A stretch of DNA of 42,003 bases from a virus (lineage: Duplodnaviria > Heunggongvirae > Uroviricota > Caudoviricetes): IMG/VR virus record IMGVR_UViG_2671180896_000003, positions 1-42,003 of that record. One strand, given 5' to 3'. The notes beneath the pieces are model-generated. The model had not been told where the DNA came from. It did no database searches and worked only from the letters and a program-made list of their open reading frames with translations. Position 1 is the stretch's first letter. Each line of letters begins with the position of its first letter. Below, piece by piece: positions 4,706 through 26,063 of the stretch. The position numbers and the translations under genes are program-made.

Positions 4706-5059
4706 TTATGCCTCGCTGGTAAGGGTGGTTTGTCCGTAGATAGTGTTTATGGTGGCTGTGAACGTTACCCGGCGTGTCGTGCTTTCATTCACGGTATCAA
4801 AGGCCAGTATGGACAGAACGCCAGGTGTGGTGCTGATGCGATCCCTGATCGCAAGGTTATAAACCTCAGGCCTTTGCTTTCCCAGAACCGACTGGATATA
4901 GGGTGTGCCCTCGGTTGTGTCCAGAAACCATTGCCCCTTCCACAGTTCAAAGCGCGTTTTAACGGCCTGGGCCACGCACTCGGGTGAGTTGACCAGAAAG
5001 GTGTCATCGCCCTGGCCGAAGGTGTAGTCCCCGTCGTCGTCTTCGCGTCGGTATCGCAT
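4706..5059 (-). CDS. Baseplate wedge protein (gpW / GP46-like)
   Basis: 117 aa small acidic protein between spike and J-like genes, the typical gpW/gp25 position. Confidence 0.5.
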   Translation of the reverse strand: MRYRREDDDGDYTFGQGDDTFLVNSPECVAQAVKTRFELWKGQWFLDTTEGTPYIQSVLGKQRPEVYNLAIRDRISTTPGVLSILAFDTVNESTTRRVTFTATINTIYGQTTLTSEA

Positions 5060-5933: not shown

Positions 5934-6284
5934 ATGCCAAAATCAGAAACAACCATAAAATTTACTCCAGCTATTTGGAAAGAGTTACTTCCTGTAATCC
6001 AGGATAACATACCCGCTAATGACTATGTAGTAAGTAAAAGAGTCAGAACGGGTGATTCTCCTGGCGCTATTGGCACAATTCTCGAAATATCTATTACCGT
6101 TATCACATCATCACCAGCTTGTATCGCCATTGCATCGATAGCGAGAAAATGGTTACAGACCAGATCATCAAAAAAAATAACGGTAACCACTGAAAAAGGT
6201 ACGATCGAAATACAAAATCTGACATCAAAGGAGCTTTCAGAAGTACTGGAGCAGTACAAAATTATAAGTTTTAAAGACGAGTAA
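5934..6284 (+). CDS. Hypothetical protein (moron candidate, antisense to late operon)
   Basis: 116-aa ORF followed immediately by a plus-strand terminator; weak RBS; one hydrophobic segment (ITVITSSPACIAIASIA). Coding status uncertain. Confidence 0.35.
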   Translation: MPKSETTIKFTPAIWKELLPVIQDNIPANDYVVSKRVRTGDSPGAIGTILEISITVITSSPACIAIASIARKWLQTRSSKKITVTTEKGTIEIQNLTSKELSEVLEQYKIISFKDE

Positions 6285-6288
6285 CTGA

Positions 6289-6314
6289 GCGCCGGTAGTT
6301 CCGGCGCCTTTATT
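6289..6314 (+). terminator. Intrinsic terminator (plus orientation)
   Basis: GCGCCGG-TAGTT-CCGGCGC hairpin followed by CTTTATT. Confidence 0.55.
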
Positions 6315-16848: not shown

Positions 16849-18102
16849 TTATTTGTTACGTTTCCAGAATTCGGCGTTGATTTTGTTCAACTCAGCCGGG
16901 GACATTGGGCCGCGGGCGCGGTCGCCAGTTGGTTTGCCTGAAGGCGGGGTGATGCGGTTCTTTGCCTTACTGATCTCGACTGCAGCCTTAAACACCGCAT
17001 CGACAGTGGCCTTCGGCGCTTTGGCGAAGTCGGAAATGCCAAACGCCTTCAGGCTGTCGCCTGTGCGCAGCGCCTGGTTGAGTACCTGACGCTTCAGGCC
17101 TTTGTCGCCGGCAGGCTGGAAGCCCGGGCAGATGATCTCTGCGTCGCCGATGATGTTGCGCTTATAGGCCGCATCGCCGGTTACCTTCGCATCCTCTTTC
17201 GCGTCTTCGTCACCGGTTTTGGTTTCGTCGTCCAGATCAGCATCGCCAGTTTTGCCTTCCAGCTTATCGAGTCGAGCAATCAGAGCCTGCGCCCAGGCGG
17301 GCGCCTCTTCATCACCGGTTTTCTTTTCCGGATCGGTATCTTCATCGACCGTGGTCTTCTGGTCTGCTGGCAGCGCGGTAGCCTGTGAAGGCACGTTCAT
17401 GTTGATGGTTACGCCGGGGATGGAACCCATGCCGTCAGATGGCATGTCCGGCGCTTCATCGATGAGCTTCGTCAGCGCGTCCTCATCTTTCGTCTTAATG
17501 GCCTGAGCCAGTTTTTTCAGCCATGACATTGCAGGCTTCTCCTTTGGTTTTGATGGGGCCGAATCCCCGATTGCACAGCGGGAGCCCGCCCGGCCCTTAT
17601 CAACGATGGCCAGATGGTTTCCTGTGATTTCTGTTTGCTTGCCCTTGCCCGGGCCGATTTGCACGTACTGGGCGTCGTAGCCACAGCTGACCTGGTTTTT
17701 ACCAGCGTTGACCGCATCGATGCCTTCCTGCCGCTTCACCAGCACATCAGCGATCAACAGGTCGGTTTTATCGCCGGTGCCGCGGCGGACGTTCTGGATA
17801 TGGCCATGGGCCAGCTCCGCGAAGTTCGCCGGGTTAACGAAAACGATGTTGCCTTCGCCGTCTTCCGGGTGATCCAGCGTTACCGCCATGCCCTCGAAGC
17901 TCGCCATAGTCTCTGGAGAGAAAACCTCGTCCTCGGTGCGATAGATGACCACCAGCCCATCTGCGCCAGGCTCAAGGCCGATTTCTTCGGGAAGATAGGT
18001 TTGCGTGCCGGTGCGGGCGATCGGGACGTCTTTGCACAGCAGGGAGCCGTCCGCCAGCTGGTAGCGCGTTTCGCCAAGGCGGGTAATGAAGAAGTATTTC
18101 AT
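16849..18102 (-). CDS. Prohead protease/scaffold protein (Mu gpI-like)
   Basis: 417 aa; long acidic, Lys/Asp/Glu-rich C-terminal half typical of scaffolding domains; position between Mu F-like gene and capsid. Confidence 0.6.
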   Translation of the reverse strand: MKYFFITRLGETRYQLADGSLLCKDVPIARTGTQTYLPEEIGLEPGADGLVVIYRTEDEVFSPETMASFEGMAVTLDHPEDGEGNIVFVNPANFAELAHGHIQNVRRGTGDKTDLLIADVLVKRQEGIDAVNAGKNQVSCGYDAQYVQIGPGKGKQTEITGNHLAIVDKGRAGSRCAIGDSAPSKPKEKPAMSWLKKLAQAIKTKDEDALTKLIDEAPDMPSDGMGSIPGVTINMNVPSQATALPADQKTTVDEDTDPEKKTGDEEAPAWAQALIARLDKLEGKTGDADLDDETKTGDEDAKEDAKVTGDAAYKRNIIGDAEIICPGFQPAGDKGLKRQVLNQALRTGDSLKAFGISDFAKAPKATVDAVFKAAVEISKAKNRITPPSGKPTGDRARGPMSPAELNKINAEFWKRNK

Positions 18103-18126
18103 GGGTTACCTGCTGAATTGCGGGCA

Positions 18127-18151
18127 GTAAAAAGGCCGCGCAGTAGCGGCC
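18127..18151 (-). terminator. Intrinsic terminator (minus orientation) upstream of scaffold gene
   Basis: GGCCGC-GCAGTA-GCGGCC hairpin followed on minus strand by TTTTT. Confidence 0.55.
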
Positions 18152-18269
18152 ACTGGGGTTTATCTAATGCTTTAGCACGAGCTCTTCACCACTAATTTTC
18201 GGCCTTGACACTCTAAATTCGATAGTGAAAACATGAACATTGATTCCCACCACCAAAAGGAGTTTTGAA

Positions 18270-18467
18270 ATGAGCACTAAAGCAGAATTGTTAGCGAAGA
18301 TGGATCGCATGGCAGATGAGTGGTCACGCACCACTGGCCTCAACAATGACTATGTTGAGGGCGAGCGTTACACCAAAATCAAAGACCAACTTGCAGCGCT
18401 CGGGGTGAACGCTCGCATTGATGCCGTAGAGGGTAATTCAGCTCAATTCAGGGTTTATGTAGATTGA
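18270..18467 (+). CDS. Hypothetical small protein (moron embedded antisense in head gene cluster)
   Basis: 65 aa from MSTKAELLAKMDRMADEW...; strong RBS AAGGAG 7 nt upstream of ATG; followed by strong terminator. Confidence 0.6.
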   Translation: MSTKAELLAKMDRMADEWSRTTGLNNDYVEGERYTKIKDQLAALGVNARIDAVEGNSAQFRVYVD

Positions 18468-18482
18468 GAAAGCCTCCCTCCC

Positions 18483-18510
18483 AGCCATCCTTGTGATGGC
18501 TTTTTTATTT
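18483..18510 (+). terminator. Intrinsic terminator (plus orientation)
   Basis: AGCCATC-CTTGT-GATGGCT hairpin followed by TTTTTTATTT. Confidence 0.75.
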
Positions 18511-19263
18511 CCTGGGATTTGGCACCTGCACTTCCGGCCAGCATTTGCAGTTCGGCAGGCACCCGGCGTGCCCGGTCATACCGTCCAGCGTCGGCGGGTT
18601 ATCCCAGCGCACAAACTTATCTTTCATCCAGCGATGTGAATCGCGCGTTCCGGCCCCTTCGATGCGCCACCAGTAGCCCTCAGAGCCAATCGACTCAGCG
18701 CGCGCCTGGGTGAGCGCTGTCGTGGCCCGGCCGATTTCGGTGCGGGCGATCATCTTCGCGCGGCTCTCTGCCACGTCGCCGGACTCCATAATCATCCGAT
18801 AGAGCGCGTCGGGGCGCTCACCGTTTATGACGGCTTCCATTGCGCGCTCCTGGATGTCACGAACGCGGTCGGCAGCTTCCAGCGGAAGAGATTTAATCAG
18901 CTGCACCTGGCGGGATACGATGTCCTGAGCCACGAACCCCACCGGCGTATTGCCGACAACATCCCGCAGCCCCTCAGAGATTTCCTGCGACACAGAGCGC
19001 CACTGGTTCCACTCCTCCTGCTCAACCTGCAGGAACATGCGTTTGGCTACCCGGTCGGCCCAGTCGTCAATCAGCAGCGAGTAATCTATCAGCCGGGCGC
19101 TAACCTGCTCGGCGCTCGCTTCCGAACCATCGTAGGAGCCAGTTACTATCGCGCCGCACTGACGCGCTATCTCCTGTAGACTTTTCTGATACTGGCGCTC
19201 CGATTTGCGGCGGAGGTTCGGTTTCAGATTCAGCCTCCTCCCATTCTGCTTTGGCATCTTCAA
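18505..19263 (-). CDS. Minor head protein, Mu F / SPP1 gp7-like head morphogenesis protein
   Basis: 252-aa ORF downstream of portal; family recognised by position and C-terminal WxxxxDxRxR-like region; annotated start overlaps portal 3' end by 164 nt, so true start may be internal. Confidence 0.65.
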   Translation of the reverse strand: MKMPKQNGRRLNLKPNLRRKSERQYQKSLQEIARQCGAIVTGSYDGSEASAEQVSARLIDYSLLIDDWADRVAKRMFLQVEQEEWNQWRSVSQEISEGLRDVVGNTPVGFVAQDIVSRQVQLIKSLPLEAADRVRDIQERAMEAVINGERPDALYRMIMESGDVAESRAKMIARTEIGRATTALTQARAESIGSEGYWWRIEGAGTRDSHRWMKDKFVRWDNPPTLDGMTGHAGCLPNCKCWPEVQVPNPRK

Positions 19264-20578
19264 TATCCTTGTCGGTGATAGAGCCGCCGATACCGATGAT
19301 GTCGGACAGGTTGCGCAGGTCGTTCAGCGCGGCATGCTGCGGCATACCGATGTCGCGCACGGCAGTCGCCAGGGCGGTGGCCACGTTGCTGGCCATTGTC
19401 GCCCGGTCAGTGTCCGACATCTCCCAGAGCTTGTTGAACTCGAAGGTGAAGTCTTCCGGCAGGGGCTGTCCGAACAGGGAGCGCCAGGAGATATCCAGCA
19501 GCCAGCGGATGTGTCGGCGCAGGCGGCGCTCCTGCAGCGAGTTAACGCGGCTGTAGTAGTTCTCCAGATCCCCGTCGCCGGTGCTGAATCCGGATGGTGA
19601 CTGCCCGAACAGGCGCACCAGCGGGATCCCAGTTGCGCCGGATACCTGCTCAGCAAAGCGCAGGATGACATCAGCGATCCCGGCGAACGAGTAACTGTGG
19701 GTCTGGAACTCGTCCGACTTATCCATGATGGTCATGCCTTCTATGGTCTGGAACTCACGGATCATGTCCATGTGCTTCATCAGACCATCTTCCAGCGTGC
19801 CGCCAGTGGCCAGAATCTTACGCAATCCGTCAATGCTGTAGGTACGCAGGTGCGCCTTGTGAATCAGCTGTGTAGTGCCGACGGTTGCGGTATCGAACGC
19901 CTGAATGCGCTCGTAGATACGCTCGACTACCGACATTCCCCAGCCGTTCTCGGTCTGCGCCTGCTGGAATGGCAGTGTGTCACCTTCCATGCGGATAATG
20001 CGGCTGTGGTGAATCTTCCACGGGGGGATCCCCTGCTGGTTGGTCACCACCTTGTAGTACTTCGGCTTGCCGAACTCCGGGCCGTAATCGGTCACCAGGT
20101 CGTAATAGCTCGGGGTTACCTGCCAGCGGTCGAGGCACATCACCCCCTTGAACTGACCCTCTTTGATGCGGTCGAGCTTCAGCGGAGTGGACATGTCCTG
20201 CCCTTCCAGCAGCACCACCAGCAGCGCGCCGCCGTACAGCCGGGACCACTTCAGGGTGTCGTTCAGTCCGTCCCAGATGGCAATGTCATCCCAGAACATC
20301 TCAAATTTACCCTTCTGTCCGGGCTCGAGCTTGGAACTGATGTTTATGCCCTTGCGGGTCATATCATCGGCCATAGCGTCTACACCGGCGCCCACCAAAA
20401 ACGATGAACGATACGCAAATTCCAGCTGTACGCGGTTACGCGAGATATAGCCAGGCTGATAGCTCCCACCGCTCTGGATGTTGGATGTATAGCCGCCGAG
20501 CTTAGCCGCGAAGTTGTTGTACCCGTCACCAGTCCGGACGGGCTTTTGTGCGCCGCTCTGGCGTTTCTTTCGGGACAT
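19100..20578 (-). CDS. Portal protein
   Basis: 492 aa immediately downstream of terminase large subunit; acidic C-terminus; size and position typical. Confidence 0.8.
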   Translation of the reverse strand: MSRKKRQSGAQKPVRTGDGYNNFAAKLGGYTSNIQSGGSYQPGYISRNRVQLEFAYRSSFLVGAGVDAMADDMTRKGINISSKLEPGQKGKFEMFWDDIAIWDGLNDTLKWSRLYGGALLVVLLEGQDMSTPLKLDRIKEGQFKGVMCLDRWQVTPSYYDLVTDYGPEFGKPKYYKVVTNQQGIPPWKIHHSRIIRMEGDTLPFQQAQTENGWGMSVVERIYERIQAFDTATVGTTQLIHKAHLRTYSIDGLRKILATGGTLEDGLMKHMDMIREFQTIEGMTIMDKSDEFQTHSYSFAGIADVILRFAEQVSGATGIPLVRLFGQSPSGFSTGDGDLENYYSRVNSLQERRLRRHIRWLLDISWRSLFGQPLPEDFTFEFNKLWEMSDTDRATMASNVATALATAVRDIGMPQHAALNDLRNLSDIIGIGGSITDKDIEDAKAEWEEAESETEPPPQIGAPVSEKSTGDSASVRRDSNWLLRWFGSERRAG

Positions 20579-22675: not shown

Positions 22676-22936
22676 ATGTCAGATGTAGAAAAAAGAATTG
22701 CCCATCTTGAGGATTTGGTTGAAGAGTTACAGTTACACAGCCACGCTTCTCGTGTTGCTATTGCTGTATTATCAACGGCTTTAAACGGAGTTGTGGGGAA
22801 AGAAACTCACCTCGGAGATGTTTATTTAGAAGGGGTTTCTAAGGCCGACCCCATCGAATTCGACATTCCCGCTAAAGATGGATACCTAGAAAAATTAAAC
22901 GAGAGAGTCGCTGCTCTACTAGGCAGAGCACAATAA
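22676..22936 (+). CDS. Hypothetical protein (moron in the bor position, antisense to late operon)
   Basis: 86 aa; RBS AAGGAA 6 nt upstream of ATG; no signal peptide; predicted helical N-terminus; hairpins downstream. Confidence 0.55.
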   Translation: MSDVEKRIAHLEDLVEELQLHSHASRVAIAVLSTALNGVVGKETHLGDVYLEGVSKADPIEFDIPAKDGYLEKLNERVAALLGRAQ

Positions 22937-25232: not shown

Positions 25233-26063
25233 TTATCGAGTTATTGCTCGCAGTTGCGATTCGGCCCACGCTTCTTCCATGTCGAATTTGGTGATCAGCC
25301 GGTCGTAAAACGGCTTCACTGACTTTTTCCAGGTGTCCAGAGTAATGGCGTCGGTAATAAGGCAAACAGCCGCATATGCCTCAGTCGAGGGGATCCGCTC
25401 ATACCCGCGCCCGCCGCAGCGCTTGCAGTCGGCCATCACCGGCGCGCCCTGCTTTTCTGTCAGCGTCTTGCTGACAGCTTTTCCGCGCCCCTGGCAGTCA
25501 TTACATGCGCAGCTGACGACCTTCTTCCCTTTGCAGGCCGAGCACAGCACCCGGGCCACCTCTTTCACCTCACGCCGATTCTGATGCTGCGAAGGGATAA
25601 CCTTCAGCCCCCATTTTTTTGATTTTTGAATGATGTCTTTTGCGCAGCCAGAGATGCTGGTTTTCATACTAAAAACGTCAGCCTCAATGAACCCCTGCCC
25701 TGCGCAACATTCGCACCTCTTGACGCTGGCGGCGCTGCGGGAATAGTCCTCAAAAGCGAAGGTAGCAAGCTGGCGCATCACCAGCGGTTTAACCCCAGCG
25801 TCCAGTTTGCGCAGGGCAGCCACGCTATCGCATTTTGTCAGCGCATACTGGGCCAGCAGCTCGATCGCTCTCTCCCGATCGTTGTTGCTGATGCCCATCT
25901 TTCCGAGAAAGGCACTGTAGCCCATGGCGGCGCGTTCCTGGGTCATGCCCATGGCTGCCATGATGTCCGTTCCGGTCAGCGAGTCGGAGGCCGTAGCGCG
26001 CGGAGAGTCGCTAATCAGCGTCGATTTGGCGAAGTGGTATTTCACGGTGTTTTCGAGGTTCAT
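25233..26063 (-). CDS. Late-gene antitermination protein Q
   Basis: 276 aa; multiple CxxC zinc-finger motifs; position immediately upstream of late regulatory region and lysis genes. Confidence 0.8.
   Translation of the reverse strand: MNLENTVKYHFAKSTLISDSPRATASDSLTGTDIMAAMGMTQERAAMGYSAFLGKMGISNNDRERAIELLAQYALTKCDSVAALRKLDAGVKPLVMRQLATFAFEDYSRSAASVKRCECCAGQGFIEADVFSMKTSISGCAKDIIQKSKKWGLKVIPSQHQNRREVKEVARVLCSACKGKKVVSCACNDCQGRGKAVSKTLTEKQGAPVMADCKRCGGRGYERIPSTEAYAAVCLITDAITLDTWKKSVKPFYDRLITKFDMEEAWAESQLRAITR

Follow-up and report, generated by a model that had tools for sequence, protein, structure and literature searches.

A small antisense gene between the head genes of an Escherichia coli prophage has the sequence features of an independently expressed moron

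The head-gene cluster of a tailed phage genome (IMG/VR record IMGVR_UViG_2671180896_000003, 42,003 nucleotides (nt), whose whole length is called the window here) contains a reading frame of only 65 codons which runs on the plus strand, antisense to the late genes around it. Is this open reading frame (ORF) a gene, and if it is, when would it be expressed and to what use? The initial annotation placed it (18270-18467) between a Mu F-like and a scaffold gene, described a strong ribosome-binding site (RBS) and two bracketing terminators, and suggested expression independent of the late operon, for example in the lysogen. The antisense ORF itself was confirmed, and the RBS was located as AAGGAG 7 nt ahead of the ATG. 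We conclude that the element is very likely a moron with a real protein product. It is probably transcribed autonomously, the selected product being a small protein made in the lysogen.

The RefSeq entry for the ORF is a 'hypothetical protein' (WP_053271619). A search of 5.8 billion proteins returned seven clusters at 90% identity, which are 71-100% identical to the protein of 65 amino acids (aa), with 71-98% for its homologues; all of them are exactly 65 residues long without any indel, and each homologue with a readable contig has the identical position and orientation, antisense between the Mu F-like and DUF2213 genes. The cassette alignment comprised eight sequences, one of them a duplicate, and so seven non-redundant loci representing about five distinct lineages (three loci are near-identical), with saturated synonymous sites. 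The ratio of nonsynonymous to synonymous substitution rates (dN/dS, pairwise Nei-Gojobori) was 0.07-0.2, with dS at or near saturation (>1), and 27, 12 and 50 alignment columns were variable at codon positions 1, 2 and 3, respectively. None of the five other reading frames is free of stops in any lineage, and the single lineage that has GTG in place of ATG has it at the same position with the RBS kept. The purifying selection at the protein level, the codon-position pattern and the stops in the other frames indicate that the selected product is a protein and not RNA alone. Judged by this pattern of substitutions, the ORF encodes a genuine protein under strong purifying selection. Conservation in related phages, which the initial annotation had named as one of the points on which the gene would stand or fall, was found in related prophages, and other relatives lack the gene.

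Other readings of the same DNA were rejected. A 75-aa form from an in-frame upstream TTG (18240) does not fit the RBS, which serves the ATG at 18270, nor the inferred transcription start, which falls at roughly this TTG, nor the lineage with GTG at 18270. A minus-strand mini-ORF starting from the invariant CAT at 18232-18234 has only 11 codons in one lineage and no conserved RBS, and a 60-aa antisense ORF (18164-18346) fails because every reverse frame has stops in the homologues.

The gene lies in an insertion. In Klebsiella prophages (e.g. ST405-OXA48phi1.2) and in prophages of E. coli ST361 and ST540, both flanking genes match those of the window at 76-79% identity, and the matches span 351 nt less. 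From the stop codon of Mu F to the start codon of DUF2213, the gap that holds the ORF measures 402 nt in the window, and as annotated in ST405-OXA48phi1.2 and ST361 it measures 51 nt. Similarity to all relatives ends immediately past a backbone hairpin, at its outer edge. The insert has a GC content of 0.46 as compared with 0.58-0.60 in the flanking genes, and the GC content at third codon positions is 0.50 in the ORF as compared with 0.69-0.74. In view of the 51-nt gap in the relatives, the ~350 nt of lower-GC DNA here represent an insertion. Flanking repeats that would mark a transposable unit were sought, and only short chance-level matches appeared. Morons were defined for the phages HK97 and HK022 (Juhala et al. 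2000, as reviewed in Cumby, Davidson & Maxwell 2012, PMC3594210). The cassette displays the extra DNA between genes that are adjacent in related phages and, at the level of sequence, also its own promoter, its own terminator and a deviating base composition. As far as sequence can define one, it is a moron, with all the sequence marks of the definition. The coordinates are collected in Table 1.

Table 1 Features of the cassette, its borders and the neighbouring genes in the window
Feature	Position	Strand	Remarks
Inserted cassette (moron), ~353 nt	18152..18504	+	Between backbone hairpin and Mu F stop codon
Coding sequence, 65 codons + stop	18270..18467	+	ATG 18270, TGA 18465-18467; 65 aa
Conserved upstream block TCAC(C/T)ACT(A), TCACCACT	18185..18193	+	~12 nt ahead of -35; all lineages
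-35 hexamer TTGACA (putative)	18205..18210	+	6/6 consensus; within invariant CTTGACA 18204-18210, all lineages
Extended -10 TGaAAACAT (TGnAAACAT) (putative)	18226..18234	+	Longest of the invariant non-coding runs in the cassette
Shine-Dalgarno AAGGAG	18257..18262	+	AAAGGAG or AAAAGGG kept at all homologous loci
Intrinsic terminator of cassette	18483..18510	+	Stem 18483-18501 (7 bp), then TTTTTTATTT
Backbone hairpin GGCCGC-6 nt-GCGGCC + TTTTT	18129..18151 (stem 18151-18134)	-	31 nt upstream of DUF2213 start
DUF2213/Pa193_gp24-type head gene (protease/scaffold type)	16849-18102	-	Pfam 2e-42; phrog_1961 6e-156; left neighbour of ORF
Mu F-like head morphogenesis gene	18505-19263	-	Pfam Phage_Mu_F 5e-13; phrog_324 2e-78; right neighbour of ORF
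Portal gene	19100-20578	-	
Strong tR'-like terminator	24855-24832		Between Q-type gene and late genes
Q-type antiterminator gene	25233-26063		Start of minus-strand late genes

Conservation along the cassette is distributed unevenly. The insert starts with 33 columns (18152-18184) of which 3 are invariant; in the promoter zone (18185-18234) the count rises to 32 of 50, and in the leader (18235-18254) it drops to 3 of 20. Of the third codon positions, 15 of 65 are invariant, and the 3' untranslated region (UTR) ahead of the terminator has 0 of 15 and the terminator itself 20 of 28. CTTGACA, TGAAAACAT (18226-18234) and the terminator arms GCCATC and GATGGC are the longest non-coding runs without any variation. 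In the stretch that the initial annotation had marked for a promoter search (18152-18269), a conserved putative promoter of the sigma-70 type was thus located. Its two hexamers are separated by 18 nt, and the -10 hexamer AAACAT retains the two most important positions, A at 2 and T at 6; the call rests on conservation and not on consensus score. The conserved block upstream of the -35 hexamer, ahead of which 33 nt are almost wholly variable, may be an UP-like element or a regulator site. A second copy of it, as a possible operator, was not found beyond chance within the window. Transcription is inferred to start near 18241, giving a leader of ~30 nt and a transcript of roughly 265 nt (~18241 to ~18506).

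The strong terminator that had been noted after the ORF was borne out by its hairpin energy (-9.6 kcal/mol, z = -2.5 versus shuffled sequences) and by both arms, which are invariant in all seven non-redundant sequences. The number of terminator-like sites in the region (3 versus 1.8 +/- 1.7 in shuffles) is not above chance, and the significance of these sites comes from conservation and not from their count. The T-run overlaps the Mu F stop codon (18505-18507), so that the ~265-nt RNA would be antisense to the intercistronic part of the late mRNA only. A search of Rfam with the cassette gave nothing above noise.

Both hairpins said to bracket the ORF exist, but the left one belongs to the phage backbone, being present also in insert-free phages. 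It is a stable structure (-14.4 kcal/mol, z = -2.2 versus shuffles), terminator-like on the late strand, and the same hairpin with its flanking 5' UTR occurs in the insert-free ST405-OXA48phi1.2 and E. coli ST361 as well as in prophages with other inserts. Its minus orientation means that it cannot insulate or affect the plus-strand transcript. On this comparison, it is a backbone element which forms the left border of a variable slot and lies outside the inserted unit. In a Q-dependent late operon, antiterminated polymerase would read through such a hairpin, as expected from established lambda biology.

The DUF2213 5' UTR together with this hairpin (TTACCTGCTGAATTGCGGGCA...GGCCGC-loop-GCGGCC, 18103-18151) is conserved far better than the coding DNA around it. 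Of its 49 columns, 37 are invariant among the moron-bearing sequences, the stem arms being fixed and the loops variable, and it persists in phages with flanks of only 76-79% identity; counterparts lie in contig L001 (3087-3137) and in L021, L022 and L023. It may be an attenuator, an element of mRNA processing or stability, or a recombination border. In the moron-bearing lineage L010, an additional 66-aa late-strand ORF (4716-4916, minus strand) is located between the hairpin/UTR and the DUF2213 gene, the start of which it overlaps by 4 nt. It has no family match and may be a lineage-specific partner or another insertion.

The slot between the Mu F gene and the hairpin was found in four states: empty, occupied by the antisense 65-aa moron, by a ~260-nt filler or by a 139-aa late-strand ORF. 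The filler occurs in E. coli 25-06685 (L023, 2219-2479) and in 'Elizabethkingia phage EKP1' (L032, 3479-3743). It is AT-rich, contains no conserved ORF and is, as estimated by eye, 75-80% identical between the two genomes; it gave no Rfam match above noise and may be a small RNA or a regulatory element. The 139-aa ORF, unrelated and without a Pfam match, fills the slot in E. coli GZ2408P (L021, 2041-2460). Both flanks of the slot in EKP1 are 90% identical to those of one moron-bearing contig, and still its slot holds the filler, which indicates that cassettes are exchanged between fixed borders. As these genomes compare, the Mu F/DUF2213 junction is an exchangeable accessory slot, a hot spot bordered by the conserved hairpin. 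The EKP1 record (OM284015.1) was deposited with a Flavobacteriia host. Its head genes are ~90% identical at the nucleotide level to contig L004 (Logan SRA assembly), whose other matches are Escherichia and Klebsiella phages, and this kinship makes the deposited host assignment look doubtful.

The 65-aa protein has a mass of 7.3 kDa, an isoelectric point of 5.0, a grand average of hydropathy of -0.57 and no cysteine. Its maximum 15-residue Kyte-Doolittle mean is 0.79, which leaves no hydrophobic segment, and neither a transmembrane segment nor a signal peptide or lipobox was detected in it. A protein without a hydrophobic segment and without cysteine is expected to be cytoplasmic and to be neither a lipoprotein of the Bor/Cor type nor a membrane protein of the gp15/SieA type; the hallmark segments of the membrane and lipoprotein exclusion morons (HK97 gp15, P22 SieA, lambda Bor, Cor) are absent from it. 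The same secondary structure was predicted in two AlphaFold2 runs, with helices at 4-22 and 28-43 followed by strands at 48-52 and 60-64. The inter-helix loop is the least confident region of the model, yet it carries the most conserved motif, L-S/H-N-D-Y-x-E-G-x-R-Y. When distant members are included, W18, E30, L7 and L41 are invariant across the family and L-S-N-D-Y-s-E-G-x-R-Y is nearly so. The small size, the charge and a conserved loop for which no confident fold is predicted on its own make the binding of a partner protein its most likely mode of action, rather than that of an enzyme, a membrane protein or a DNA binder. Two weak PHROG matches (E = 0.024 and 0.16) were taken as noise, and a literature search for WP_053271619 returned nothing usable.

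These features would combine into a simple mode of action. Host sigma-70 RNA polymerase would transcribe the cassette in the repressed prophage, and the terminator would end the transcript at the Mu F stop codon, sparing the head genes antisense read-through. After induction, Q-modified polymerases from pR' would cross the cassette head-on and damp its expression by transcriptional interference, so that the product, a small, acidic, cytoplasmic protein with a predicted alpha-alpha-beta-beta order, would be essentially a protein of the lysogen. The gene's own conserved promoter, RBS and terminator and its absence from relatives fit, at the sequence level, the independence from the late operon that the initial annotation had proposed, and we consider expression in the lysogen probable. 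The role would be a lysogenic-conversion function that benefits the lysogen, our best guess being resistance to other phages. For defence in particular, which is suggested by analogy, the case is tentative, and we would put it at possible rather than likely.

Known systems provide the analogy. The cassette shares with the morons of HK97 and HK022 the extra DNA between late genes, the own promoter and terminator, the deviating GC content, the small protein and the presumed expression from the repressed prophage. The product of the founding moron, HK97 gene 15, is an inner-membrane superinfection-exclusion protein related to YebO and encoded in the tail operon, whereas the protein in the window is soluble, acidic and unrelated, and its gene lies in the head cluster against the operon. 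The lambda gene bor (lom/bor type) is located in or next to the late region, has its own promoter active in the lysogen and runs against the late operon. Bor is a secreted lipoprotein affecting serum resistance; the window protein, in contrast, lacks a signal peptide, a lipobox and any cysteine. The nearest parallel to the arrangement as a whole is Tab (gp31) of Pseudomonas phage JBD26, a soluble protein of 83 aa without a recognisable domain. Its gene runs on the opposite strand within the late operon under a promoter of its own; the protein is constitutively expressed from the prophage and blocks the tail assembly of invading phages (PMC10884400). Both proteins are small and soluble (83 versus 65 aa), both genes are transcribed from promoters of their own (putative in the window) against the late operon, Tab likewise has no similarity to known domains, and both elements are present in some relatives and absent from others. 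Tab differs in its location between the terminase genes and in being always paired with a late-strand anti-Tab gene. The likeness is one of design and not of family.

Distant members of the family are rare. An exhaustive profile search of 1.84 billion cluster representatives yielded 12 clusters (11 new sequences), and two further profile searches added a few members in Janthinobacterium, Marinomonas, Methylobacter, Aeromonas and metagenomes. All those examined but one sit in prophage accessory slots, the exception being the Methylobacter copy, which is chromosomal and has no phage genes around it. The homologue of Marinomonas sp. TW1 belongs to a cargo island within a P2-like prophage's tail region, close to an nSTAND3/Mrr-type gene, and in a metagenomic phage-like contig the gene follows a Gp49/HTH_37 (HigBA-type) toxin-antitoxin pair. 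In Aeromonas prophages (L026-L029, 8001-8219), the homologue P0030 is the first gene after a Q-type antiterminator, a classic cargo position; it is followed in some strains by AAA_15 and HNH (Septu-like) genes and a gene for an 881-aa SMC-like ATPase, and in another strain by two N6/N4 methyltransferase genes. Most of these contexts are those of a mobile accessory gene in the variable regions of prophages, often in the company of conflict genes; they do not identify its target.

Several points weigh against an autonomous moron that serves the lysogen in defence. The gene is rare: it was found in 5 of 5426 complete E. coli genomes, in none of 50,697 phage GenBank records searched by tblastn, in no GTDB species representative and in IMG/VR only as two identical copies. 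Only three of the six positions of the -10 hexamer match the consensus, and a standard promoter scan, which needs at least four matches out of six per hexamer, called no promoter in the cassette; the shortfall in the -10 hexamer explains why it was missed. The AlphaFold2 models, built from alignments of 7 and 15 sequences, are of low confidence (predicted local distance difference test 65-66, predicted template modelling score ~0.3). Sequence-profile and fold searches of Pfam, PHROG, NCBIfam, PADLOC and PDB found no match for the protein, just as no family had been recognised at the outset. Comparison with Tab, extracted from the JBD26 record, gave no BLASTP alignment and an hhalign probability of 0.1%. 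A late-strand antidote gene was looked for as well: the cassette holds no conserved minus-strand ORF, the reverse frames being stopped in every lineage, and L010 is the only lineage with an extra late-strand ORF near the moron. Finally, a defence role has behind it only analogy and the accessory, defence-rich neighbourhoods of the distant homologues.

What else could the cassette be for? The protein may act on host physiology, being made in the lysogen and binding a host regulator or enzyme so as to alter stress tolerance, growth or division. Small prophage proteins of the anti-adaptor type and of the DicB/KilR type are precedents for such modulation. The expression architecture would be the same as for a defence protein, a soluble, acidic and very small protein without an enzymatic motif would suit the task, and the host-directed roles of morons are diverse (PMC3594210). 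We nevertheless regard this as unlikely, given that family searches revealed zero similarity to known modulators and that hosts as diverse as Escherichia, Aeromonas, Marinomonas, Methylobacter and Janthinobacterium would require a widely conserved target. A bolder proposal, somewhat doubtful in our opinion, is that the protein founds a new family of cytoplasmic conflict proteins of prophages, either a Tab-like assembly blocker (perhaps of heads) or an inhibitor of HEPN-like effectors, with the head-on placement as a safety switch. The gene would be on in the lysogen and silenced after induction by Q-antiterminated late transcription, which would replace the separate antidote gene of Tab. Inhibition could also serve the phage itself, as anti-defence or an immunity-type function directed at a host nuclease or an abortive-infection effector or acting like an anti-CRISPR, and made early after infection or induction. 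This idea draws on P0016 (L017, 1676-2383), in which a domain of the 65-aa type is fused to a domain of 160 aa. The latter constitutes an uncharacterised family of its own (P0022-P0027; L019 4001-4486, L020 4001-4474) with invariant RPTH, GHKL and PHGQ motifs. Searches of Pfam, NCBIfam, PADLOC and PDB with it gave nothing but a sub-threshold HEPN Pfam match of its stand-alone copies (E = 0.06), and in Methylobacterium its gene lies downstream of a PIN_10 gene. The stand-alone copies, however, have no small gene beside them, so the lead from the fusion to HEPN stays weak, and the fusion itself is a single cluster on two short contigs. The Mu-like Pseudomonas phages (JBD26) likewise carry small accessory genes in an analogous slot past head genes of the Mu F/G type, which we take to be the anti-CRISPR locus. 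The acr/aca loci of such phages resemble the cassette in the variable slot by a Mu F-like gene and in small unrelated genes with their own promoter, but they are co-oriented with the late operon and have an aca regulator with a helix-turn-helix (HTH) domain alongside, whereas the window gene is antisense and single. No aca-type HTH or other partner gene adjoins it in the window or at the homologous loci, PHROG, Pfam and PADLOC searches gave no match, and no co-transcribed partner, as expected of a toxin-antitoxin or HEPN-antitoxin system, was found at any enterobacterial locus, where the unit is always a single gene. Its orientation against the late operon also suits expression in the lysogen better than at the time of infection, and we judge an anti-defence function distinctly unlikely.

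Two further explanations dispense with a protein acting in the lysogen. The transcription itself could matter, the convergent promoter or the ~265-nt antisense RNA tuning the late operon (e.g. the ratio of Mu F to DUF2213) by interference or duplex cleavage, with the ORF being incidental. The unit does lie head-on in the late operon, and its transcript would be complementary to the Mu F-DUF2213 intercistronic region, but strong purifying selection on the protein in the face of saturated synonymous sites, the conserved RBS and start codon, relatives that assemble heads with the slot empty or otherwise filled, homologous proteins encoded at quite different genomic positions and the lack of an Rfam match make it very improbable. 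That the protein is a head-assembly accessory (a chaperone or decoration factor) merely encoded on the other strand would agree with its site amid head-morphogenesis genes and with the conserved position in all close homologues. We find this scarcely credible, since related phages with the same head genes lack it, its orientation, putative sigma-70 promoter and foreign base composition set it apart from the late operon, and its distant homologues are found in tail-region cargo islands, after Q genes or in the chromosome and not near head genes. The selection pattern, the empty sites and the varied contexts of the homologues thus largely exclude cis-acting, structural and spurious readings, and a small protein made in the lysogen from its own promoter is the reading we prefer.

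In kind, the element is already well known as a moron, and its independent expression, probably in the lysogen, was a reasonable intuition. What is new is modest: a rare, unannotated small-protein family, a precise conserved promoter (putative) and the Mu F/DUF2213 junction as an exchangeable slot with a hairpin border. Morons are the main route by which prophages give their hosts new traits, and most small moron proteins are functionally uncharacterised. The cassette is a minimal case, with one promoter, one 65-codon gene, one terminator, natural controls in the form of empty sites and alternative inserts, and obtainable strains such as NCTC11023. It is well suited to testing whether antisense placement leads to expression confined to lysogeny, and its product could be a new small protein of defence or host modulation. 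An inert protein would make it one more hypothetical moron; the interest would rise with the demonstration of a new defence or anti-defence activity, or of the antisense placement as a built-in off-switch in lytic growth.

As to its genomic setting, the window is an E. coli prophage which combines a lambdoid early region with a head and contractile-tail module of the E217/Pa193 type. Over two compared segments, 18100-18520 (421 nt) and 17600-19000 (1401 nt), it shares 99.8-100% identity with the five E. coli chromosomes that carry the gene; in one of them, Res13-Sevr-PER07-33, the prophage adjoins tonB/yciI. The late genes follow each other on the minus strand in the order Q-type gene, lysis, terminase, portal, Mu F-like, DUF2213, capsid and tail genes. 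Both neighbours assigned to the ORF at the outset were recovered by Pfam, although 'scaffold' is no more than an approximate name for the DUF2213 gene, whose relatives are labelled 'head maturation protease' in PHROGs. Where the Mu F-like gene begins is ambiguous. Its longest ORF, which opens with TTG and encodes 252 aa, shares 164 nt with the portal gene, and the PHROG alignment spans residues 1-250 of this form; the RefSeq form has 177 aa (18505-19038), and gene callers gave 194-225 aa on related contigs.

The window contains other plus-strand genes of a similar kind. A second antisense moron is located in the baseplate/tail cluster (5934-6284, plus strand). It encodes 116 aa with an EACC1 domain (PF19953, 1e-6), has a GC content of 0.37 and its own GC-rich terminator (6289-6307), and a minus-strand terminator lies at 5754-5737. 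The EACC1 domain has been described from conflict systems. A third plus-strand ORF (22676-22936; 86 aa, GC content 0.43, no family match) runs against the late operon between the small terminase and lysis genes, with a minus-strand terminator nearby at 23050-23031.

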